44,537 nucleotides of DNA. Source: a phage. Below, piece after piece: positions 1-44,537 of the stretch (the stretch's first letter is position 1; each line of letters opens with the position of its first letter). The notes under the pieces are model-generated. The model searched no databases and was not told where the DNA came from. It worked only from the letters and a program-made list of their open reading frames with translations. Made by a program: the position numbers and the translations under genes. The stretch lies in assembly GCA_034027115.1 (NCBI GenBank), contig GCA_034027115.1_4703.1; one strand, written 5' to 3'.

Positions 1-1
1 A

Positions 2-1273
2 GGTACAGCCAGTTACAACATAGTCAGTAATGTTATAGGGGCAGATTGCCAGCATGTAACTTACAACGGCACTGAAGGGCCAATAGCTCCTTCTAATAAC
101 CTTATCAAGGGGGTGATGGCTAATAACCCTAAGTATGCAGCGGTTGTTGCAGGCAAAGGAAGTACGAACTTAATCTCAGACGTGCTCGTAGGTTACTCAA
201 CTTCTGATGCTAGTCAGGCTCATGGTGTTACCGTAGAAGGGTCTGATAACGTCATAAATAATGTGCTTATGTCAGGATGTGATGGTACTAACTCTTTAGG
301 ACAAAGGCAGACTGCTACAATTGCACGCTTTATAGGTACAGCTAATAACAACTATGCGTCTGTATTTCCTAGCTACAGTGCTACAGGCGTTATTACTTTC
401 GAATCCGGCTCTACCCGTAACTTCGTAGAGGTAAAGCACCCTGGCAGGAGAAACGACCTTCTCAGTTCTGCTAGTACTATTGACGGTGCATCTACTATTG
501 ACGGCACTAATAATAGTAACGTAGTACACGCACCTGCCTTAGGGCAGTACATAGGTAGTATGTCAGGTAGGTTCGAATGGCGGATTAAGTCCATGTCACC
601 CCCTTCAGGCGTTCTTACTTCTGCTGATAAGTACAGAATGCTTGGGGATGGTGCTGTATCATTAGCTTTAGGTGGGGGTACTTCTTCTCAAGTTCGCCTA
701 TTTACTTCTGATGGTACTTCTCGGACAGTGTCCCTCACCAACGGTAACGTGCGTCTTTCTACCAGTACAGGCTATTTGCAGTTAGGTGCTAATGCAATGA
801 CCCCAGATAGTACTGGTACATACGCATTAGGTTCCGCCAGTCGAGCATGGTCTGGCGGTTATACTCAAGCAGCATTCACTGTTACATCAGATGCTCGGTG
901 TAAAACAGAACCTCTTACTATCTCAGATGCCTTACTGGATGCTTGGTCTGAAGTTGACTTTGTGCAGTTTAAGTATTTGGATCGTGTTGAGGAGAAGGGT
1001 GCAGACTCAGCTAGATGGCACTTTGGCATCATAGCTCAGCGAGCTAAGGAGGCTTTCGAACGCCACGGTATAGATGCACATCGCTATGGCTTCTTGTGTT
1101 TCGACAGTTGGGATGATGTATACGAGGAAGATGCCAATGGCTCTCGTAAACTGATTACACCAGCAGGTTCCCGCTACGGTATTCGTTACGAGGAAGTACT
1201 GATATTAGAGGCTGCGTTGATGCGGCGGACTATTAAGCGTATGCAGGAAGCACTAGCTTCCTTGCCTAAGTAA
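2..1273 (+). CDS. Tailspike/tail fibre protein, C-terminal portion; ORF is open to the window edge, so the 5' end lies outside. Ends in an intramolecular-chaperone (peptidase S74-like) domain.
   Basis: Frame is open from position 2 with no stop until 1271-1273; the first in-frame ATG at 113 is not the true start. Translation has the S-D-x-R-x-K autocleavage-type motif (TSDARCK) followed by ...WHFGIIAQRAKEAFERHGIDAHRYGFLCFDSWDD, typical of endosialidase/tail-fibre C-terminal chaperone domains. Confidence 0.8.
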   Translation, partial: GTASYNIVSNVIGADCQHVTYNGTEGPIAPSNNLIKGVMANNPKYAAVVAGKGSTNLISDVLVGYSTSDASQAHGVTVEGSDNVINNVLMSGCDGTNSLGQRQTATIARFIGTANNNYASVFPSYSATGVITFESGSTRNFVEVKHPGRRNDLLSSASTIDGASTIDGTNNSNVVHAPALGQYIGSMSGRFEWRIKSMSPPSGVLTSADKYRMLGDGAVSLALGGGTSSQVRLFTSDGTSRTVSLTNGNVRLSTSTGYLQLGANAMTPDSTGTYALGSASRAWSGGYTQAAFTVTSDARCKTEPLTISDALLDAWSEVDFVQFKYLDRVEEKGADSARWHFGIIAQRAKEAFERHGIDAHRYGFLCFDSWDDVYEEDANGSRKLITPAGSRYGIRYEEVLILEAALMRRTIKRMQEALASLPK

Positions 1274-1357
1274 GCAACAGGCAGTGCGTAAGCACTGCTT
1301 TCACGCAACTTTTCTTAAAGGTTATCATGGTGGTAGCCTTTCAGAAAAGGAGGTTAC

Positions 1358-3409
1358 ATGCTTCAAAGACTAGGGGCTTCCTTGGTGAAGTTCAAGAGTA
1401 AACTCGCTGGTGCCATCGAACGTATACTCTCAGACAAGTTAATGGACACTGTAAGCGTTAAAGATTTTGGCGCTAAAGGAGATGGTATCTCAGATGATAC
1501 TGCTGCTTTCAAAGCAGCAATAACTTGTGGCGCATCTCGTGTATTAGTACCTGCTGGTAGGTATGTGATTACTGACACCCTTTCTTTGCCATCTGGGGTC
1601 TGGTTATTGGGTGAGGGTGTTGACTATTGGGATACCTATCGTCCAGACGAGGGTAGGCTTATTAAGTCATGGAGTAAAGGAACGCACCTTGTGTTCACTG
1701 GCAGTGGGCCTAAAAACAAGCAATTTCTTAATATCTCTAATGAACGCCCAACAAAGACAATAAATAAAGTAACCTGCTCTTTTACCGACTTCACCAATAG
1801 TGATGCACAAGCAACAAAACCTGCTACACCACGTAGTATGAGTATTGCTGTATCAGTACAGGCAGGCAGTGGCTTACGCGATCTTCGTATTATGGTAAAC
1901 AATGAAGGTATCTCTGGTTACAATGACTTTGTTTCTACAAACAAGCTAGGTGACAACTGGGATATTGGGTTGCATGTATATGACAGCTCAGATGCTGTAA
2001 TTGATAATGTGCAAGTTGTTGGCTATTGGAGGGTTGCAGGTACACTCTTAACGGAGAACGACGGCTCCATCACAATGCGTGGTAATCCAGAGAAGACACT
2101 ATTTAATAAGTTCTACACTCAAGGTATCAGAGGTTTACTTATTAGGAATAGCCCACAAGTAGATGTAGTATCTCAAGAGTCAGCAACCAAGTTAACCATT
2201 AAAGCGAATGCTACGTCCCGTATATTAGCACAAAATGGTTTTCGAGTAGCAGGTAGTACTACGATACATAGATGGACTAGTGTTACAAGACAAGGAGACA
2301 CTTATGTATTAGATGGCATCACACCTGCGTTACCTTCTGCTTCTGACCTCGGGGTTGTTCATTTCCCATCTATGGGTAACAATTGGTCTGGTACAGTGTT
2401 CAACAATACTGTTGCTGTGTCCTTTGAGCACTCATCCGGTAGCACCTCAAGACAACTAGGACTTCCTGTATCTTTTGCTATGGAGATTGATGGCTTCCCT
2501 TGTCGTAACCTCAAGTTCATAAACTTCAAGGCACAGACTTCTTACGATGAAGGAAATACATTGTTTGGTGATATGCGCGATGCCAAGTTTGTGGCTAGTG
2601 AGTTCGAGAATGGTAGGTTGATTGCGTACGATTTGTCTCAGACCCAAGGGTACACTGGGAATATGCGGTCTGCTGTGTCTGACATGCAGTTTCATTCTAC
2701 TAATATTGAGGGCTTCACACCACGTGATTTCTTCTATGACCTAGGACACTTTCCTACTTCTTACACTGATGGTTCTTTTATCATGAAGCATTGGAGAGAA
2801 AAGGATTTACAGGTACAATGGTATAATGGTAAAGCATTCATCCGTCTACATGAAGATGATGGCCGTGTAACACTTACCAGTAAAGATGGTCTAGATTTGT
2901 ATAACTTTAGTTCTACAAAAGACGTGACGTTCAATGGTCGCAATTTTGTATTCAAAAACGATGTAAGTGAAGACGTATTGAAGTGGTTTGGCGGTTCAGG
3001 GGATATCTCTACGAAAGGCAACATCTCGCCTATGGTAGATGGGACTGCCTCTCTGGGTACAAATTTCTATCGCTGGGGCGCAGTGCATTCAGTAAATGGG
3101 ACGTTACAAACCTCTGACGGTAGGCTAAAGGAGATCCATGATATTAAACAAGAAGAACTTGATGCGGGGATTGCATTATCAGCAAGTCTAATCAAGTACC
3201 GTTGGTATGGAGAAGAAAAGTTCCACTTTGGTTGTATTGCCCAAGAGGTAATGTTAATCATGGAGAAACATAATCTAGACCCATTACAGTATGGAATGGT
3301 GCAGTATGATGAAGAGGCAGACATCTTTAGTGTAAACTATGCTGAATTGAACAGCTTCTGCATCGCAGCTCTGTCTAGGAGGTTGAATGCCATTAATCAA
3401 ATCAGTTAA
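1358..3409 (+). CDS. Tailspike protein (683 aa) with pectate-lyase-like right-handed beta-helix and C-terminal intramolecular chaperone domain; probable capsule/LPS depolymerase.
   Basis: SD AAAGGAGG 7 nt upstream of ATG. N-terminal VKDFGAKGDGISDDTAAFKAAI...VPAGRYVI motif typical of pectate-lyase-fold tailspikes. C-terminal TSDGRLKEIHDIK...FHFGCIAQEV chaperone motif. Confidence 0.85.
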   Translation: MLQRLGASLVKFKSKLAGAIERILSDKLMDTVSVKDFGAKGDGISDDTAAFKAAITCGASRVLVPAGRYVITDTLSLPSGVWLLGEGVDYWDTYRPDEGRLIKSWSKGTHLVFTGSGPKNKQFLNISNERPTKTINKVTCSFTDFTNSDAQATKPATPRSMSIAVSVQAGSGLRDLRIMVNNEGISGYNDFVSTNKLGDNWDIGLHVYDSSDAVIDNVQVVGYWRVAGTLLTENDGSITMRGNPEKTLFNKFYTQGIRGLLIRNSPQVDVVSQESATKLTIKANATSRILAQNGFRVAGSTTIHRWTSVTRQGDTYVLDGITPALPSASDLGVVHFPSMGNNWSGTVFNNTVAVSFEHSSGSTSRQLGLPVSFAMEIDGFPCRNLKFINFKAQTSYDEGNTLFGDMRDAKFVASEFENGRLIAYDLSQTQGYTGNMRSAVSDMQFHSTNIEGFTPRDFFYDLGHFPTSYTDGSFIMKHWREKDLQVQWYNGKAFIRLHEDDGRVTLTSKDGLDLYNFSSTKDVTFNGRNFVFKNDVSEDVLKWFGGSGDISTKGNISPMVDGTASLGTNFYRWGAVHSVNGTLQTSDGRLKEIHDIKQEELDAGIALSASLIKYRWYGEEKFHFGCIAQEVMLIMEKHNLDPLQYGMVQYDEEADIFSVNYAELNSFCIAALSRRLNAINQIS

Positions 3410-38406: not shown

Positions 38407-39368
38407 TGAGTTATACTTTCACAGAACATATAGCCAACGGTACGCAAGTAACCTATCCCTTTAGATTTGCTGGCAGGGATAAAGGCTATCTTCGTGCCTC
38501 AGATGTGATAGTGGAATCTCTTCAAGGTAACACTTGGATTGAGGTTACATCTGGCTGGCAACTAACTGGCACGCACCAGATTACTTTTGATGTAGCACCA
38601 GTTGCAGGTTTGAAGTTCCGTATTCGAAGGGAAGTACAAAAGGAGTATCCATACGCTGAGTTTGACCGTGGTGTTACCTTGGATATGAAGTCTTTAAATG
38701 GTTCTTTCATTCATATACTGGAGATTACACAGGAGTTACTTGACGGGTTTTATCCAGAAGGATACTTCATTAAACAGAATGTAAGCTGGGGCGGCAATAA
38801 GATTACTGATTTGGCTGATGGCACAAATCCTGGAGATGCAGTAAATAAAGGGCAGCTTGATGCCATCGACAAGAAGCATACAGATTGGAACGCCAAACAG
38901 GACATTGAGATTGCTGGCCTTAAGGCTGGTATGACTTCTGGTATTGCGCACAGAACTGTTCCTTGGTACACGATAGCCAAAGTTGGTGAGATTTCCGTAA
39001 AACCACCTTATGAATTTCAAGATGCACTAGTTTTCCTTAATGGGGTGTTGCAGCACCAAATTGTAGGCGCATACTCTATAAGCAACAACACTATCACTTT
39101 CGCAGAGCCGCTTGTGGCGGGTACAGAGGTGTATGTGCTGATTGGTAGTCGTGTGGCTACATCTGAACCTAATATTCAGTTAGAGTTGAACTTTGACTTA
39201 GTAGAAGGCCAACAAGTAGTACAGATTGGCTCTGCATTTAAGTACATTGAGGTCTACCTTGATGGATTATTACAACCTAAACTTGCTTATCAGGTAGACG
39301 GTGACATTGTTACTTTCTCAGAAAGAGTACCAGAATGCCGGATGACTGCTAAGATTATCACAGCATAA
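38406..39368 (+). CDS. Tail fibre N-terminal-domain homologue acting as tailspike adaptor.
   Basis: GGAGG SD; ATG overlaps upstream stop (TGATG); about 320 aa, the size of a gp17 N-terminal domain without a receptor-binding part, as in SP6-like phages where separate tailspikes dock on an adaptor. Confidence 0.8.
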   Translation: MSYTFTEHIANGTQVTYPFRFAGRDKGYLRASDVIVESLQGNTWIEVTSGWQLTGTHQITFDVAPVAGLKFRIRREVQKEYPYAEFDRGVTLDMKSLNGSFIHILEITQELLDGFYPEGYFIKQNVSWGGNKITDLADGTNPGDAVNKGQLDAIDKKHTDWNAKQDIEIAGLKAGMTSGIAHRTVPWYTIAKVGEISVKPPYEFQDALVFLNGVLQHQIVGAYSISNNTITFAEPLVAGTEVYVLIGSRVATSEPNIQLELNFDLVEGQQVVQIGSAFKYIEVYLDGLLQPKLAYQVDGDIVTFSERVPECRMTAKIITA

Positions 39369-39377
39369 GGAGGTGGG

Positions 39378-39572
39378 ATGATTAACTCCGAACTGGTAGA
39401 TAGTGGTGTGAAGCTTGCGCCACCTGCACTCGTATCAGGTGGGTACTTCCTCGGTATCAGTTGGGATAATTGGGTGTTAATAGCAACATTCATTTATACC
39501 GTGTTGCAAATTGGGGACTGGTTTTATAATAAGTTCAAGATTTGGAGGGAGAAGCGTGAGCGTACACAATAA
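39378..39572 (+). CDS. Holin (T7 gp17.5-like, class II).
   Basis: AAGGAGG SD; WVLIATFIYTVLQIGDWF resembles the T7 holin core (WFYVAAIAYTVVQIG); basic C-terminus. Confidence 0.75.
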   Translation: MINSELVDSGVKLAPPALVSGGYFLGISWDNWVLIATFIYTVLQIGDWFYNKFKIWREKRERTQ

Positions 39573-39855
39573 ACATGCAGCTACAGAGGACGAGGTTGGC
39601 ATTCTGCATGGTGCTATTACCAAAATCTTCAATAAGAAAGCACAGGCAATACTGGACACTATAGAAGAAGACCCTGATGCAGCATTACATTTAGTGTCTG
39701 GTAAGGATATTGGTGCGATGTGTAAGTGGGTTCTTGATAACGGCATTACCGCCACACCTGCTGCACAGCAGGAAGAGTCCAAGTTATCTAAGCGCCTCAA
39801 GGCTATCCGAGAGGCATCCAGTGGTAAGATTATTCAGTTTACAAAAGAGGAGTGA
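39556..39855 (+). CDS. Putative terminase small subunit (positional call; GTG start after GGAGGG).
   Basis: About 99-aa ORF between holin and large terminase as in T7 gene 18; no motif I can verify. A promoter-like AATACTGGACACTATAGAAGAAG lies inside at 39646..39668. Confidence 0.45.
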   Translation: MSVHNKHAATEDEVGILHGAITKIFNKKAQAILDTIEEDPDAALHLVSGKDIGAMCKWVLDNGITATPAAQQEESKLSKRLKAIREASSGKIIQFTKEE

Positions 39856-39856
39856 T

Positions 39857-40300
39857 ATGCATAGATGGTGTGAATCTCAAGGTTATACCATCTTACCTTC
39901 TGGTGTCATCCTTTCAAAGGGTGGCACCCCTCTCAAACCATTCAAGGCGGGTAGGGGTTATTTAGCAGTTAAAATTAAAAATAAAGAAGGTAAATGGCGT
40001 AATGTCTATGTTCATCAATTAGTGGCTTATAAGTATTTACCTAAAACTAATAATGAAGTAAACCACAAAGACGGCGATAAGCACAACAATGATGTTAGCA
40101 ACTTGGAGTGGGTAACAAGAAGCGAGAATAACTATTTAAAATGCAATGGAAATGATAGGAGTGCCTTAAATAGCTATTTAGCAAGATTAAAAGATTGCTT
40201 CTTGCAAGGTAAGGGTGTAGCAGAAACCGCTAGACTTACTGGTAAAAGTGAACCAAGAGTTTCTTCTCTCTTTAAGGAGTGGCGAAATGGCAAAGGCTAG
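39857..40300 (+). CDS. HNH endonuclease inserted between the terminase subunit genes.
   Basis: AGGAG SD; NHKDGDKHNNDVSNLEWVTRSEN HNH signature; overlaps the large terminase start. Confidence 0.8.
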   Translation: MHRWCESQGYTILPSGVILSKGGTPLKPFKAGRGYLAVKIKNKEGKWRNVYVHQLVAYKYLPKTNNEVNHKDGDKHNNDVSNLEWVTRSENNYLKCNGNDRSALNSYLARLKDCFLQGKGVAETARLTGKSEPRVSSLFKEWRNGKG

Positions 40301-42185
40301 AGAATCACAGGCAGAGGCATTAAAGCGGTGGGAAAACCTTAAAGAACTACAAGACACTTTTAAATATACAGCGGAAGGTTTGCTTCTCTTTGCAGATACA
40401 GTTATCCATAACTTGATTGCAGGCAACCCTCATCTGATTCGTATGCAGGCTGATATCTTGAAGTTCCTATTCTACGGACATAAGTATCGCCTCATCGAAG
40501 CGCCTCGTGGTATCGCTAAGACAACACTATCAGCAATCTATACGGTATTTCGTATTATCCACGAACCTCATAAGCGTATCATGGTTGTATCCCAAAACGC
40601 TAAGCGAGCAGAGGAAATCGCAGGTTGGGTAGTTAAAATCTTCCGTGGCCTAGACTTCCTTGAGTTTATGCTGCCGGATATCTACGCAGGGGACCGTGCA
40701 TCCGTTAAGGCGTTCGAGATTCATTACACCCTACGTGGTAGTGATAAGTCTCCTTCTGTATCCTGTTACTCAATCGAAGCAGGTATGCAAGGTGCTCGTG
40801 CGGATATTATCCTAGCGGATGACGTAGAGTCGATGCAGAATGCTCGTACGGCAGCGGGCCGTGCCTTGCTTGAGGAACTGACTAAGGAGTTTGAATCTAT
40901 CAACCAGTTTGGGGATATCATTTACCTTGGTACGCCTCAGAACGTAAACTCTATCTACAACAACCTACCTGCTCGTGGTTACTCTGTTCGTATCTGGACT
41001 GCGCGTTACCCTTCAGTAGAGCAAGAGCAATGTTATGGCGACTTCCTTGCACCTATGATTGTTCAAGATATGAAGGACAACCCAGCACTTCGCTCAGGGT
41101 ACGGGTTGGATGGTAATAGTGGTGCACCTTGTGCCCCTGAAATGTATGATGATGAAGTCCTGATTGAGAAGGAAATCTCTCAGGGTGCTGCTAAGTTCCA
41201 GCTTCAGTTCATGCTTAACACTCGCATGATGGATGCTGACAGATACCCATTACGCCTGAACAATCTAATCTTCACCTCGTTTGGTACAGAGGAAGTCCCT
41301 GTGATGCCTACGTGGAGTAATGATTCCATAAACATCATTGGTGATGCACCTAAGTATGGTAACAAGCCTACGGATTTCACGTACAGACCTGTAGCTCGCC
41401 CATACGAATGGGGTGCTGTCTCCCGCAAGATTATGTATATTGACCCTGCGGGTGGTGGTAAGAACGGAGACGAGACGGGTGTAGCCATCGTATTCCTGCA
41501 CGGCACATTCATTTATGTGTATCAGTGCTTTGGTGTACCTGGCGGATACCGAGAGTCGTCCCTGAATCGCATTGTGCAGGCCGCAAAGCAGGCGGGTGTT
41601 AAAGAGGTATTCATTGAGAAGAACTTTGGTCATGGCGCGTTTGAGGCGGTAATTAAGCCGTACTTTGAACGAGAGTGGCCTGTAACTCTGGAAGAGGATT
41701 ACGCCACCGGACAGAAAGAGTTGCGTATCATTGAGACGCTGGAGCCGCTCATGGCAGCACATAGGCTTATCTTCAATGCAGAGATGGTGAAGTCAGACTT
41801 TGAGTCGGTACAGCACTATCCGCTTGAACTACGCATGTCCTACAGTCTTTTCAATCAAATGTCGAACATAACGATTGAGAAGAACAGCCTCCGGCACGAT
41901 GACCGCCTAGACGCCCTGTATGGCGCTATACGGCAATTAACTTCTCAGATAGACTATGACGAGGTTACACGGATTAATCGCCTCAGAGCGCAGGAGATGC
42001 GCGATTACATCCATGCTATGAATACACCTCATCTACGCAGGGCAATGCTATATGGAGATTACGGTACTGAGCGAAGAGTGACCAACACTTCCGTAGCGAT
42101 GCAGCAGCGAGTTTACGGGCAGAACTACCGAAATAAATCGGCAAGCAGAAATACACTTTCTGCAAGGATTTCAAGGACTTATTAA
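40287..42185 (+). CDS. Terminase large subunit (T7 gp19-like).
   Basis: Walker A-like PRGIAKTT, ADDVES, YLGTPQ, KFQLQFMLN, IETLEPLMAAHRLIF and HDDRLDAL motifs match the gp19 family; AAGGAG SD before ATG 40287. Confidence 0.95.
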   Translation: MAKARESQAEALKRWENLKELQDTFKYTAEGLLLFADTVIHNLIAGNPHLIRMQADILKFLFYGHKYRLIEAPRGIAKTTLSAIYTVFRIIHEPHKRIMVVSQNAKRAEEIAGWVVKIFRGLDFLEFMLPDIYAGDRASVKAFEIHYTLRGSDKSPSVSCYSIEAGMQGARADIILADDVESMQNARTAAGRALLEELTKEFESINQFGDIIYLGTPQNVNSIYNNLPARGYSVRIWTARYPSVEQEQCYGDFLAPMIVQDMKDNPALRSGYGLDGNSGAPCAPEMYDDEVLIEKEISQGAAKFQLQFMLNTRMMDADRYPLRLNNLIFTSFGTEEVPVMPTWSNDSINIIGDAPKYGNKPTDFTYRPVARPYEWGAVSRKIMYIDPAGGGKNGDETGVAIVFLHGTFIYVYQCFGVPGGYRESSLNRIVQAAKQAGVKEVFIEKNFGHGAFEAVIKPYFEREWPVTLEEDYATGQKELRIIETLEPLMAAHRLIFNAEMVKSDFESVQHYPLELRMSYSLFNQMSNITIEKNSLRHDDRLDALYGAIRQLTSQIDYDEVTRINRLRAQEMRDYIHAMNTPHLRRAMLYGDYGTERRVTNTSVAMQQRVYGQNYRNKSASRNTLSARISRTY

Positions 42186-42205
42186 TTACTGGACACTATA
42201 GAAGG
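42184..42205 (+). promoter_or_regulatory. Phage promoter immediately after the terminase gene (AATTACTGGACACTATAGAAGG).
   Basis: Near-exact consensus; positionally like T7 phiOR. Confidence 0.7.
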
Positions 42206-42346
42206 AAGGCCCAGATAATAAGAGAAAATAATAGGTAATATATAGTTTAACCTAGGTTATATAGGTATGCCTTAGTATGGGTGTACTCCTGTACACCCTA
42301 TTCCTTACTACCTTACTATATTTACATAATAGGAGAGAGAGAGACA

Positions 42347-42625
42347 ATGGCTAAGGATTATAGTAGTCAACCATTAACAGGTAAGTCTAAGAGAGAGCAG
42401 GTACAACCTGTAAGTGAAGAACTAATGCTTCCGGTAATCAAAAAAGAGGAAGCTAGTAAGAAAAGCAATGCTATTAATGATGCCACCAAATCAGGTAAAC
42501 AGAAAGGTGCAATGGTGTGCCTTGAAGGGAAAGATGGTATATTGAAGATTGCTATCGCGGTTGATGGCAAAGAAGATTCAGAGTGGAAGTTAGTAACAGT
42601 GGTATCAACTGTTAAACCATTTTAA
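42347..42625 (+). CDS. Small protein, paralogue A (about 92 aa) with SGKQKGAMV-LEG motif.
   Basis: AGGAGAGAGAGAGA leader then ATG; shares a near-identical 27-nt segment (tcaggtaaacagaaaggtgcaatggt) with the next gene. Confidence 0.6.
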   Translation: MAKDYSSQPLTGKSKREQVQPVSEELMLPVIKKEEASKKSNAINDATKSGKQKGAMVCLEGKDGILKIAIAVDGKEDSEWKLVTVVSTVKPF

Positions 42626-42643
42626 GATAAGGAGGAAGATTAC

Positions 42644-42934
42644 ATGGCTGAATATGGTACTGCAGGTTCTGTTACTGGTCAGGTTTTTCGAGTAAAAGCA
42701 GTACAAACTATTGCAACGGCAATCCCGATGCCTGTTGTTAAAGCAGCAGACCTTAATAAAAAAGATCACCCTATCAACATCAAACATTTATCAGGTAAAC
42801 AGAAAGGTGCAATGGTTGCTCTTGAGACAGATGCCGAAACCTTATGTATTGCTGTTGCACGTGGTAGTGAACCAACAGACCCTTGGGATGTAACTGGCAT
42901 GGAATCGACCGCTGTCATTCCAACAGGTGGATAA
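42644..42934 (+). CDS. Small protein, paralogue B (96 aa) with SGKQKGAMV-LET motif.
   Basis: TAAGGAGG SD; same conserved segment as paralogue A. Confidence 0.6.
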   Translation: MAEYGTAGSVTGQVFRVKAVQTIATAIPMPVVKAADLNKKDHPINIKHLSGKQKGAMVALETDAETLCIAVARGSEPTDPWDVTGMESTAVIPTGG

Positions 42935-42936
42935 TA

Positions 42937-43281
42937 ATGCTTAACAAATACTTCAAGCGCCGTGAGTTCGCTTGCCGTTGTGGGTGCGGTACATCCACTG
43001 TTGATGCTGAATTACTACAAGTAGTCACAGATGTGCGTGAGCACTTTGGTTCTCCTGTAGTTATCACTTCGGGGCACCGCTGTGCTAAGCACAATGCTAA
43101 TGTAGGAGGGGCTAAGAACTCCATGCATCTTACTGGTAAGGCTGCTGACATTAAGGTACGAGGCATCTTACCTTCTGATGTACATAAGTATCTTACTGAT
43201 AAGTACCAAGGCAAGTATGGTATTGGTAAGTATACCTCCTTTACTCATATTGATGTACGTAACGGGTGTGCACGATGGTAG
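42937..43281 (+). CDS. Endolysin, peptidase M15-type zinc peptidase.
   Basis: SGHRCAKHNANVGGAKNSMHLTGKAADIKV matches the M15 signature (His/Asp zinc ligands); start taken at ATG 42937 (ORF track frame begins 42883). Confidence 0.85.
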   Translation: MLNKYFKRREFACRCGCGTSTVDAELLQVVTDVREHFGSPVVITSGHRCAKHNANVGGAKNSMHLTGKAADIKVRGILPSDVHKYLTDKYQGKYGIGKYTSFTHIDVRNGCARW

Positions 43282-43389
43282 GTTGTGTTGCATGGTGTGA
43301 ACGCATGGTTGCTAAGGCTTCAGAGGAAGGCAACTATGAAGATTGGCAGAACTACTCAACTTTATTAGCTCAATGGAAAGAGAGATGCA

Positions 43390-43539
43390 ATGAAAAAGCT
43401 GTTCAAATCTAAGAAGGTTGTAGGTGCACTAGTTGCATTGGCAATTGCTCTTGTTTCTGTAGGTCTTGGTGTAGACCTTGGCTCTGGCACGGAATCCTCT
43501 GTGACAGATGTGGTCTGCCAAGTGATCACCTGTGAATAA
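43390..43539 (+). CDS. Possible small membrane protein (49 aa) in the lysis cluster.
   Basis: Basic N-terminus followed by one hydrophobic helix (VVGALVALAIALVSVGLGV); weak SD; below ORF-track cutoff. Confidence 0.35.
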   Translation: MKKLFKSKKVVGALVALAIALVSVGLGVDLGSGTESSVTDVVCQVITCE

Positions 43540-43753
43540 GTTTCTAGAAGTGCTGGCAGGTCTTATTGGCCTGCTTGTCTCTGCTAAGAAGAAACAAGAA
43601 GAGAAGGAGGCACAAAGTGAAGCGAATCATGTTAGTGACAATCCTGCTGATTGGTTCGCTGACCACTTCCGGGTGTCAGCAGGCGTTACCAGAGAAAGCA
43701 ATGGTGAAACCTCTGAGGCCGACGCTGACGGAAGTTTACGAGGTAGACGATAA
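43532..43753 (+). CDS. Candidate i-spanin (Rz-like); start uncertain (GTG).
   Basis: N-terminal transmembrane segment FLEVLAGLIGLLVSA then a charged region; contains the o-spanin candidate in another frame. Shorter than typical Rz proteins. Confidence 0.45.
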   Translation: MNKFLEVLAGLIGLLVSAKKKQEEKEAQSEANHVSDNPADWFADHFRVSAGVTRESNGETSEADADGSLRGRR

Positions 43754-43823
43754 GGTCTGCTTTAGTAAGCCTGACGCTACAAAAATTAGGTTTGTATATT
43801 CTTTCGCTAGAACGCGGATATAA
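43629..43823 (+). CDS. Candidate o-spanin (Rz1-like outer-membrane lipoprotein) overlapping the i-spanin candidate in a different frame.
   Basis: MLVTILLIGSLTTSGC: short hydrophobic signal with lipobox-like TSGC; Pro-containing mature part. Confidence 0.5.
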   Translation: MLVTILLIGSLTTSGCQQALPEKAMVKPLRPTLTEVYEVDDKVCFSKPDATKIRFVYSFARTRI

Positions 43824-43856
43824 TTAATACATAGCTTTATGTATCAGTGTCTTACG

Positions 43857-43880
43857 ATTTACTGGACACTATAGAAGAGG
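43857..43880 (+). promoter_or_regulatory. Phage promoter, consensus copy, upstream of the tailspike gene.
   Basis: ATTTACTGGACACTATAGAAGAGG. Confidence 0.7.
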
Positions 43881-43958
43881 TAAGATAGCGCCGTTCTTTT
43901 GAGCGGCCTATTACTAGCCAATCTTCATAGGGAGGGTTGGAAAGTAATAGGAGATAGC

Positions 43959-44537
43959 ATGGCTAAATTAACCAAACCTAATACTGAAGGAATCTTGCAT
44001 AAAGGACAATCTTTGTATGAGTACCTTGATGCGAGAGTTTTAACATCAAAGCCGTTTGGTGCTGTAGGTGACGCCACTACTGATGATACGGAGGTTATAG
44101 CTGCTTCATTAAACTCTCAGAAAGCTGTCACAATCTCAGACGGTGTATTCTCTAGCTCTGGTATTAATAGTAATTACTGTAACTTAGACGGTAGAGGTAG
44201 TGGGGTGCTAAGTCACTGTTCCAGTACAGGTAACTACTTAGTATTTAATAATCCACGTACAGGTCGCTTAAGTAATATTACGGTAGAAAGTAATAAGGCG
44301 ACTGATACAACTCAGGGACAGCAGGTATCTCTTGCTGGTGGAAGTGATGTTACTGTAAGTGACGTTAACTTCTCAAACGTTAAAGGTACTGGTTTCAGTT
44401 TAATCGCATACCCTAATGATGCGCCACCTGATGGTCTTATGATTAAAGGCATTCGAGGTAGCTATTCAGGCTATGCTACTAATAAGGCAGCCGGATGCGT
44501 ACTTGCTAACTCCTCAGTTAACTCCCTCATAGATAAC
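43959..44537 (+). CDS. Tailspike protein, N-terminal portion (3' end beyond the window).
   Basis: AGGAG SD before ATG 43959; no stop through the window end; FGAVGDATTDDTEVIAASL matches the N-terminal signature of pectate-lyase-fold tailspikes; not in the ORF track because it has no stop. Confidence 0.8.
   Translation, partial: MAKLTKPNTEGILHKGQSLYEYLDARVLTSKPFGAVGDATTDDTEVIAASLNSQKAVTISDGVFSSSGINSNYCNLDGRGSGVLSHCSSTGNYLVFNNPRTGRLSNITVESNKATDTTQGQQVSLAGGSDVTVSDVNFSNVKGTGFSLIAYPNDAPPDGLMIKGIRGSYSGYATNKAAGCVLANSSVNSLIDN

Follow-up and report, generated by a model that had tools for sequence, protein, structure and literature searches.

The lysis genes of SP6-like phages have a standard layout that has been described before (PMC4640515, PMC4837284) and that also appears in a census of spanins (PMC6139136). 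In this census, K1-5, K1E, and SP6 were listed with 'separated' spanins, with a 49-residue (49-aa) protein as the inner-membrane subunit (i-spanin), and the SP6-like phage UAB_Phi78 was listed as 'overlapped', with a 69-aa i-spanin and an overlap of 110 nucleotides (nt). The latter i-spanin appears to be an open reading frame (ORF) of the type called protein X here. The present analysis concerns the lysis genes at positions 39378–43823 of a phage DNA of 44,537 nt (NCBI GenBank assembly GCA_034027115.1, contig GCA_034027115.1_4703.1), the whole of which is referred to as the window, and in particular the protein that partners its outer-membrane lipoprotein. The source genome was identified by sequence comparison as a circularly permuted Vectrevirus (K1-5/K1E group, SP6 supergroup, Molineuxvirinae). 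An earlier reading made from the letters and the translated ORFs (the sequence-only reading) had placed a T7-type holin gene before the terminase genes and the genes of the endolysin and small membrane proteins after them, and this split layout was confirmed. Both the layout and the candidate spanins are already known, and they are ordinary for K1-5/SP6-like phages.

The reading preferred here, to which we give an even chance of being correct, is that the 73-aa protein X and the overlapping lipoprotein form a spanin-equivalent module, with the 49-aa protein as an accessory, in a standard SP6/K1-5-like lysis apparatus. Public records are inconsistent on the two genes concerned. The 49-aa protein is labeled 'holin' in RefSeq, 'putative I-spanin' in the record of LL11, and 'i-spanin' in the SP6 record AY288927.2. 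For the 73-aa ORF, records give no annotation or the names 'hypothetical', 'Rz-like', and, in SP6, 'o-spanin'. An overlapping ORF equivalent to X has been reported as Rz in UAB_Phi78, KBNP1315, and Nufs112, and is 'Rz-like' in the Nufs112 record. In AY288927.2, the 'o-spanin' label was placed on the X-frame ORF (39607–39804; locus L041), and the lipobox ORF (about 39671–39880) was left unannotated.

Conservation of the small genes downstream of the endolysin

The region was aligned over 27 related loci gathered by way of the endolysin. The 45-aa, 49-aa, 73-aa, and lipoprotein ORFs stayed open wherever the cassette was kept (26 further unique relatives). In every non-overlapping ORF segment, the third codon position of its own frame was the most variable, with entropies at positions 1/2/3 of 0.54/0.37/0.91, 0.39/0.26/1.11, 0.50/0.14/0.83, and 0.03/0.03/0.56 for the 45-aa, 49-aa, 73-aa, and lipoprotein ORFs, respectively. 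In the overlap of the X and lipoprotein genes, positions 43617–43676 (X residues 29–48 and the signal peptide) tracked the X frame (0.25/0.15/0.32), and positions 43677–43753 (the X tail and the lipoprotein linker) tracked the lipoprotein frame (0.39/0.58/0.80). Therefore, both genes are under selection, and the core of X is residues 1–48. The four proteins matched PHROGs 1312 (unknown), 4712 ('holin'), 9219 (unknown), and 8971 ('Rz-like spanin'), respectively.

Many deposited records leave the 45-aa and 73-aa ORFs unannotated, as would be expected if these overlapping ORFs were chance open frames and the annotated genes alone were real. Chance ORFs were ruled out by conservation and by the coding pattern of codon positions. 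Both ORFs were open in the relatives keeping the cassette with an excess of own-frame third-position variation, both had PHROG matches, and the 73-aa family comprised 213 cluster representatives across unrelated phages, so that this explanation retains almost no probability. All ORFs listed in the sequence-only reading were present at or near their positions, conserved, and with a coding signature. The start given for the 49-aa gene (43390–43539) was retained, whereas that given for the lipoprotein gene (43629) gave way to a likelier GTG at 43617. The 45-aa ORF at 43275–43412, a phage promoter at 42184–42204, and a 1-nt insertion in the lipoprotein gene had been omitted from that reading.

Protein X and the overlapping lipoprotein

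Protein X is encoded from a GTG start at 43532–43753 (+) and matched phrog_9219 (E 6.5e-33). Its start overlaps the end of the 49-aa gene by 8 nt. The protein is laid out as an N-terminal hydrophobic or amphipathic helix, a KKK cluster, the motif NPADWFADHF, and a variable tail; its length of 61–73 aa varies with the tail, which is a by-product of the lipoprotein frame. The search for homologues gave 113 close sequences and, by exhaustive profile search, the above cluster representatives at 50% identity, nearly all of 58–95 aa. A tblastn search of cultured phages with P0137, a divergent family member, gave no match, and a search for the family in bacterial genomes, aimed at a link to the lysis factor Lcc6 of phage LambdaSo, gave one weak Marinobacter match only. 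The family is a widespread one of 60–90 residues with a predicted amphipathic N-terminal helix, a basic cluster, and DPxxWFxxHF, and was undescribed in the papers and family libraries searched. In every context examined, a small membrane-protein gene lay upstream of the X gene, with an overlapping stop where checked, and a lipoprotein gene overlapped it.

The lipoprotein, of the outer-membrane subunit (o-spanin) family, is encoded at 43617–43823 (+) and matched phrog_8971 (Rz-like spanin, E 1.1e-28). Its likely start, GTG 43617, lies 6 nt after AAGGAGG and 12 nt upstream of ATG 43629, and agrees with the start recorded for K1-5/K1E in the census (PMC6139136). The signal peptide MKRIMLVTILLIGSLTTSG is followed by the Cys (codon 43674–43676) in the sequence CQQ, with no Asp at +2; sorting to the outer membrane is predicted from the Gln at this position. 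The residue at −3 of the lipobox is a non-canonical Thr here, which fits the relaxed PROSITE rule, and Leu in divergent relatives. The family has one conserved internal Cys and a Pro-rich linker.

Relative to X, the lipoprotein is read in the +1 frame, and the two genes overlap by 137 nt, or the 3' 62% of the X gene. The sequence-only reading was thus right that a lipobox protein and another ORF overlap in different frames. As is typical of o-spanins, the gene belongs to the lysis cassette and overlaps or adjoins that of its partner. The gene overlap typical of i-spanins was likewise found for X, and its conservation extended beyond SP6-like phages to Mu-like and marine ones. Two other roles for the lipoprotein were rejected. 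A unimolecular spanin was ruled out because the protein has no C-terminal transmembrane domain (TMD), and a Llp/Cor-like receptor-blocking role, raised by proximity to the tailspike genes, was ruled out by a C-terminal domain conserved across hosts and tailspikes and by occurrence in canonical lysis cassettes.

Gene context of the module

All loci retrieved were searched with profiles of the 49-aa, X, and lipoprotein families. The three occurred together in SP6-like phages, X and the lipoprotein occurred without the 49-aa protein in loci L074 and L101, and the 49-aa family occurred alone in Lelliottia phage phD2B. The 49-aa protein and the lipoprotein were never found together in the absence of X. 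Locus L101 had a canonical cassette of an M15_4-like endolysin, a holin-like protein with two TMDs (2-TMD), X, and the overlapping lipoprotein. In the divergent loci (L133, L134, the Mu-like L135, L137–L140, and L143), the order was always small membrane protein, X, and overlapping lipoprotein, and the lipoproteins ended in L..YI..LE. The neighboring endolysins varied and included enzymes of the M15_3, M15_4-like, GH108, and SLT-like types, as well as a DUF5675 protein in the same position, and the trio of 49-aa protein, X, and lipoprotein stood with a lysozyme-like endolysin in Pectobacterium PP99, Vibrio JSF38, and Pantoea Nufs112. This conserved order next to unrelated endolysins places X in the Rz position of canonical cassettes. 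On gene context, the X/lipoprotein pair appears better supported than the 49-aa/lipoprotein pair.

In the Mu-like metagenomic phage L135 (2131–3249), the module lay between a GH108 endolysin gene and a DUF2730 (Mu releasin-type) gene. In phage Mu, this is the place of the spanin genes gp23/gp23.1.

On a metagenomic scaffold found in two samples, a 95-aa ORF (P0173; L142 329–616) had the N-terminus, first TMD, and loop of a holin-like protein fused to the basic cluster and motif of X, and it likewise overlapped a lipoprotein gene. Its charges predict an N-in/C-out anchor, so that the X motif would be periplasmic there. P0173 resembles a natural fusion in which the two upstream genes have become one. 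A second candidate fusion, P0199, was ruled out by a stop codon between its two genes.

Weighing of X and the 49-aa protein as the inner partner

In the preferred reading, X would act as the inner partner through its core residues 1–48 (N-terminal helix, charged helix, and NPADWFADHF), and the X/lipoprotein pair, with the lipoprotein anchored in the outer membrane, would disrupt that membrane after the endolysin step. Several observations weigh against it. The co-occurrence of X and the lipoprotein is partly trivial since the genes share DNA, and functional data on these small genes were not found in the literature searched. The hydrophobic stretch of X comprises 12 uncharged residues (E6 to K19) followed by KKK, with an apparent insertion free energy (dGapp) of about +2.2, and the helix gave values of +0.2 to +5.1 among 14 relatives. 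The scale is crude. The T7 gp18.5 i-spanin (sequence possibly inexact) and the TMD of the T7-type holin scored similarly, at +2.0 and +2.4, respectively, and X may therefore still have a weak TMD. For 238 members of the family, the longest stretch without charged residues ahead of the motif had a median of 10 residues, was at least 17 residues in 5, and was less than 13 in 194. The three to four Lys/Arg residues directly after the X helix favor a cytoplasmic C-terminus by the positive-inside rule. An AlphaFold2 (AF2) model of X, used for secondary structure only, gave helices at residues 2–36 and 38–45 and a disordered tail at low confidence (predicted local distance difference test score, pLDDT, 59.6). 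It suggests no coiled-coil periplasmic domain of the kind with which an i-spanin bridges the periplasm. The sequence-only reading of an overlapping spanin pair, which agrees with one of the two competing public annotations, was favored as regards gene context, but X was not clearly an i-spanin in view of its weak helix, its basic cluster, and a family mostly without a TMD.

These features would be natural if the module were non-canonical and X were a cytoplasmic or peripheral amphipathic-helix protein rather than an integral i-spanin, a view that is rather unlikely to be correct. Two versions of it were considered. In version (a), X would reach the periplasm and the lipoprotein through the holin holes only, and the holin would directly gate outer-membrane disruption; we know of no system that works in this manner. 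In version (b), X would be a holin-level factor on the cytoplasmic side, acting with the holin-like upstream protein, and the lipoprotein would act alone or with the 49-aa protein. Such a protein is consistent with N-terminal helices that carry charges along their whole length in most of the 238 members (for example, MVEQILAVLRIILEWVRQQVRRKE and MLKSGYSALAEAFARLLEAILDALKKRQRDEE), with N-termini that in many members are plainly amphipathic helices, with a basic cluster that follows the helix in those examined by eye, and with the rarity of Cys (any in 8 of 238). In SP6-like phages, as in L137, L139, and L140, the X gene also begins before the preceding membrane-protein gene has ended, and there is a precedent in Lcc6 of the Shewanella phage LambdaSo, a protein of 65 aa with one TMD and a 43-residue cytoplasmic tail that is needed at the holin step (bioRxiv 10.1101/2024.01.23.576932). 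However, the crude scale also scores a known i-spanin as weakly hydrophobic, the P0173 fusion would put the X motif in the periplasm, and X has no detectable similarity to any named family. If X is non-integral, as the majority of family sequences suggest, the trio would constitute a third type of outer-membrane disruption, distinct from Rz/Rz1-type and unimolecular spanins, which is a rather doubtful proposition at present. Its inner component would be either in two pieces, a membrane anchor and a soluble adaptor, or cytoplasmic until the holin fires.

The spanin may instead be a separated two-component one, in which the 49-aa protein is the i-spanin with a disulfide-forming 21-residue periplasmic tail, the lipoprotein is the o-spanin, and X is unrelated. 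This is the assignment made for K1-5, K1E, and SP6 by the Young-laboratory census (PMC6139136), by the LL11 record, and by the current SP6 GenBank record AY288927.2, and it also weighs against the preferred reading. The clear TMD of the 49-aa protein (dGapp −1.2), its strongly basic N-terminus, and its conserved CxxxxC, opposite a lipoprotein with one internal Cys, agree with this assignment. Lambda Rz has two cysteines comparable to this CxxxxC, and Rz1 has one. Moreover, phD2B retains a 49-aa homologue together with an unannotated 38-aa lipobox ORF beside the endolysin. On the other hand, 21 plus about 49 periplasmic residues could not, by our arithmetic, pre-span the intact periplasm, and the census itself carried the flag 'Too small?', with position behind the endolysin as the sole support. 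The lipoprotein and X occurred without a one-TMD 49-aa homologue in L074, L101, L133–L140, and L143, the 49-aa protein matches holin-labeled 2-TMD proteins over their N-terminal half, and X is under strong purifying selection even across the signal-peptide overlap. This assignment is considered unlikely.

The 49-aa membrane protein

The 49-aa protein (43390–43539, +) matched phrog_4712 (E 3e-27) and has one TMD, whose approximate dGapp of about −1.2 bears out the single-helix membrane protein of the sequence-only reading. A basic N-terminus with five Lys before the TMD and an acidic 21-residue tail with a conserved CxxxxC after it suggest, from the charge distribution, an N-in/C-out (type II) topology. 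When the family profile was compared with 2-TMD holin-like proteins, the hhalign probability was 69.7% (E 4e-5), and the N-terminus, first TMD, and loop were aligned. These class II proteins (phrog_34682/phrog_297) lie directly upstream of X, as the 49-aa protein does, and the stop of the upstream gene overlaps the X start both for the 49-aa gene in SP6-like phages and for the 2-TMD gene in L137, L139, and L140. The 2-TMD proteins upstream of X elsewhere matched 'holin'-labeled PHROGs, and one of them cross-matched phrog_4712; no experimental basis was found for the 'holin' label of phrog_34682/phrog_297. In contrast to these proteins, the 49-aa protein has neither the second TMD nor the basic cytoplasmic C-terminus, and ends in the acidic periplasmic tail with CxxxxC. 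It looks like a truncated relative that has lost the second TMD.

From its overlap with the X start, the 49-aa protein and X are probably made together. The 49-aa protein would most likely be an accessory membrane partner or regulator, not the i-spanin. Its 21-residue tail is too short for a periplasmic domain that reaches the o-spanin, and it is not consistently inherited with the o-spanin family, being absent from L074 and L101 and present in phD2B without the others. It also lacks the charged cytoplasmic C-terminus typical of holins, although phrog_4712 is labeled 'holin'. The suggestion that it could be an antiholin gained weak support from the remote similarity to the holin-labeled 2-TMD proteins, and the suggestion of a pinholin did not hold. 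A pinholin system with a signal-anchor-release (SAR) endolysin was ruled out because the N-terminus of the endolysin is not hydrophobic.

The SP6-like phage phD2B (NC_025450) has retained a T7-type holin, an M15 endolysin, and, as its homologue of the 49-aa protein, a 45-aa protein without Cys; neither X nor a lipoprotein of this family was found in it. Its unannotated 38-aa lipobox ORF (L130 1538–1654) abuts the endolysin start.

Frameshift in the lipoprotein gene

An A5 run in the lipoprotein gene (43781–43785, +) carried a 1-nt insertion, and the extra base was absent from 25 other unique sequences. When an 86-base segment was used as a query, 47 database records matched with 85 bases and none at 100%. 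The frameshift turned the C-terminus ...DATKLGLYILSLERGYN into ...DATKIRFVYSFARTRI, with the last 13–14 codons altered, and removed the most conserved segment of the family (LGLYILSLERGY; C-terminus LGLYILSLERGYN), which was intact in all relatives. The C-terminal L-G-x-Y-I-x-x-L-E-R is thus not intact in the window lipoprotein.

Either the homopolymer was missequenced, or this isolate has a true defect of the spanin type. Spanin mutants of LambdaSo still release plaque-forming phage without added Mg2+, in numbers 3–4 orders of magnitude lower, and a real defect could therefore be tolerated in culture. That the genome may encode a defective outer-membrane-disruption protein, or hold a homopolymer error, is relevant for use in therapy or as a chassis.

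Holin, endolysin, and neighboring genes

The T7-type (gp17.5-like) holin of 64 aa (39378–39572, +) matched PF10746 with E 1.5e-27 and 95.5 bits (curated cut-off 25.4) and phrog_920 holin with E 5.8e-28, and it is annotated as a class II holin in records of relatives. Its top hydrophobic window comprises residues 27–45 (ISWDNWVLIATFIYTVLQI), and its C-terminal tail KFKIWREKRERTQ is basic. The gene lies directly 5' of the small terminase gene, which is the position of gp17.5.

The endolysin, an M15 zinc peptidase of 114 aa (42937–43281, +), matched PF08291 Peptidase_M15_3 with E 1.1e-32 and 112.8 bits (curated cut-off 23.2) and the endolysin family phrog_894. Its true start is ATG 42937, as in annotated relatives, and not TTG 42883. 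In M15 peptidases, the motif NSxH..G.AAD contributes the His and Asp that bind zinc. Reading of the endolysin sequence showed the H-x6-D ligand motif and a distal FTHID near the C-terminus. The only match to a solved structure was to 1LBU, the zinc D-Ala-D-Ala carboxypeptidase of Streptomyces albus (E 2e-4, 40 residues aligned), in which NSRHMYGHAAD aligns with NSMHLTGKAAD of the endolysin. The bond cleaved by the SP6-group endolysin was without biochemical evidence at the time of an earlier report (PMC4837284). The reading of the enzyme as a metallopeptidase in place of the T7 amidase proved sound; no gp3.5-type amidase is annotated in the 96%-identical K1-5, although not every window ORF was scanned against Pfam.

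No N-terminal hydrophobic (signal or SAR) segment was seen in the endolysin sequence MLNKYFKRREFAC..., whose N-terminus is MLNKYFKRREFACRCGCG (MLNKYFKRREF...), and the enzyme is predicted to be cytoplasmic. An endolysin without such a segment needs a hole-forming holin. The T7-type holin would hole the inner membrane at a set time, and the signal-less endolysin would then reach the cell wall.

The 45-aa ORF (43275–43412, +) has a CxxxC motif, matched phrog_1312 (E 1.4e-17), and is annotated in SP6 as gene 55. Its overlaps with the endolysin stop and with the 49-aa gene start are 7 and 23 nt, respectively, and its product is probably cytoplasmic. A 45-aa-like ORF, judged by position and visible similarity, lies 3' of the endolysin gene in SP6-like and related phages that keep the trio, and is also present with the lysozyme-like endolysin in PP99 and Nufs112.

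Upstream of the endolysin gene lie two paralogues, of 92 aa (42347–42625, +; phrog_2725, E 1.3e-35) and 96 aa (42644–42934, +; phrog_2725, E 4.4e-43), neither of which had a Pfam match. Both bear the RefSeq/PHROG label 'acetyl-CoA acetyltransferase' despite this small size, and the label looks spurious. The Klebsiella relatives L069–L071 have a 178-aa version with an additional C-terminal domain.

The small terminase subunit (39556–39855, +; PF11123, E 5.9e-16) was located by alignment to the KMB47/K1-5 annotation, and the large subunit (40287–42185, +) by its ORF and the annotation of relatives. Between them lies an HNH homing endonuclease gene (39857–40300, +; PF13392, E 2.6e-11), which is present in KMB47, VEc3, and AAPEc6 and absent from K1-5 and LL11. 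In phD2B (L132), a homing endonuclease splits the large terminase gene instead.

Transcription units and genome arrangement

The K1-5-type phage promoter ATTTACTGGACACTATAGAAG had 10 matches in the window against 0.01 expected. A phage RNA-polymerase promoter with one mismatch to this consensus (42184–42204, +) overlaps the stop codon of the large terminase gene and heads the post-terminase unit, and an exact match (43857–43877, +) at the end of the lysis unit is the promoter of the tailspike unit. The promoters at 42184 and 43857 flank the genes of the two paralogues and the endolysin and the four small genes, which therefore make up a single late unit; the tail-fibre adaptor, holin, and terminase genes are in the unit before it. 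A GC-rich hairpin (42279–42298) lies downstream of the 42184 promoter. A short AT-rich inverted repeat, ATACATA-GCTT-TATGTAT (43827–43844, +), was read from the sequence between the lipoprotein gene and the 43857 promoter.

A megablast search with positions 39300–43900 matched 140 phage records, the top ones being Escherichia phages of the genus Vectrevirus. The DNA identity over this segment was 97.9% for KMB47, 96.5–96.6% for VEc3 and AAPEc6, and 96.2% for K1-5, and gene order was unchanged in Vectrevirus relatives at 96–98% identity. When the whole window was compared, K1-5 was colinear apart from the circular permutation, with window positions 1–1487 corresponding to K1-5 39990–41480. A tailspike gene of the K5-lyase type begins at 43960 and runs on into the start of the window (features 43960–44537 and 1–1487). 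Positions 1488–3376 had no K1-5 match in the same comparison, and the second tailspike therefore differs from that of K1-5.

Comparison with known systems

SP6, K1-5, K1E, and LL11 (Zindervirus/Vectrevirus) share the gene order of the window, with proteins 75–100% identical. Unlike K1-5, the window has an HNH endonuclease gene separating the terminase genes, a feature shared with KMB47, and its second tailspike is different; the C-terminal frameshift of its lipoprotein is unique among these phages.

The X/lipoprotein module recurs in very different phages, yet its inner component is mostly without the TMD anchor that defines i-spanins, which raises the question of spanin-like disruption without a canonical inner-membrane subunit. 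Compared by description rather than by sequence, Lcc6 of LambdaSo resembles X in size and layout, with an N-terminal TMD and about 43 further residues, and it is likewise an extra lysis factor beyond the holin, endolysin, and spanin. However, the Lcc6 gene lies at a distance from the lysis cassette, and no lipoprotein gene overlaps it.

No sequence similarity to the Pfam spanin families was found. Lambda Rz is about 150 residues long. In contrast to the i-spanins of lambda and T7, X has 61–73 residues and neither a coiled coil nor Cys, and its weakly hydrophobic helix is followed by KKK. The arrangement of the genes is nevertheless that of lambda Rz/Rz1 and T7 gp18.5/gp18.7, in which the 3' part of the upstream gene also encodes the lipoprotein in the +1 frame, and the module follows a holin in a lysis cassette. 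The lipoprotein shares with its counterparts in these systems the lipobox without Asp at +2, the Pro-rich linker, and one internal Cys.

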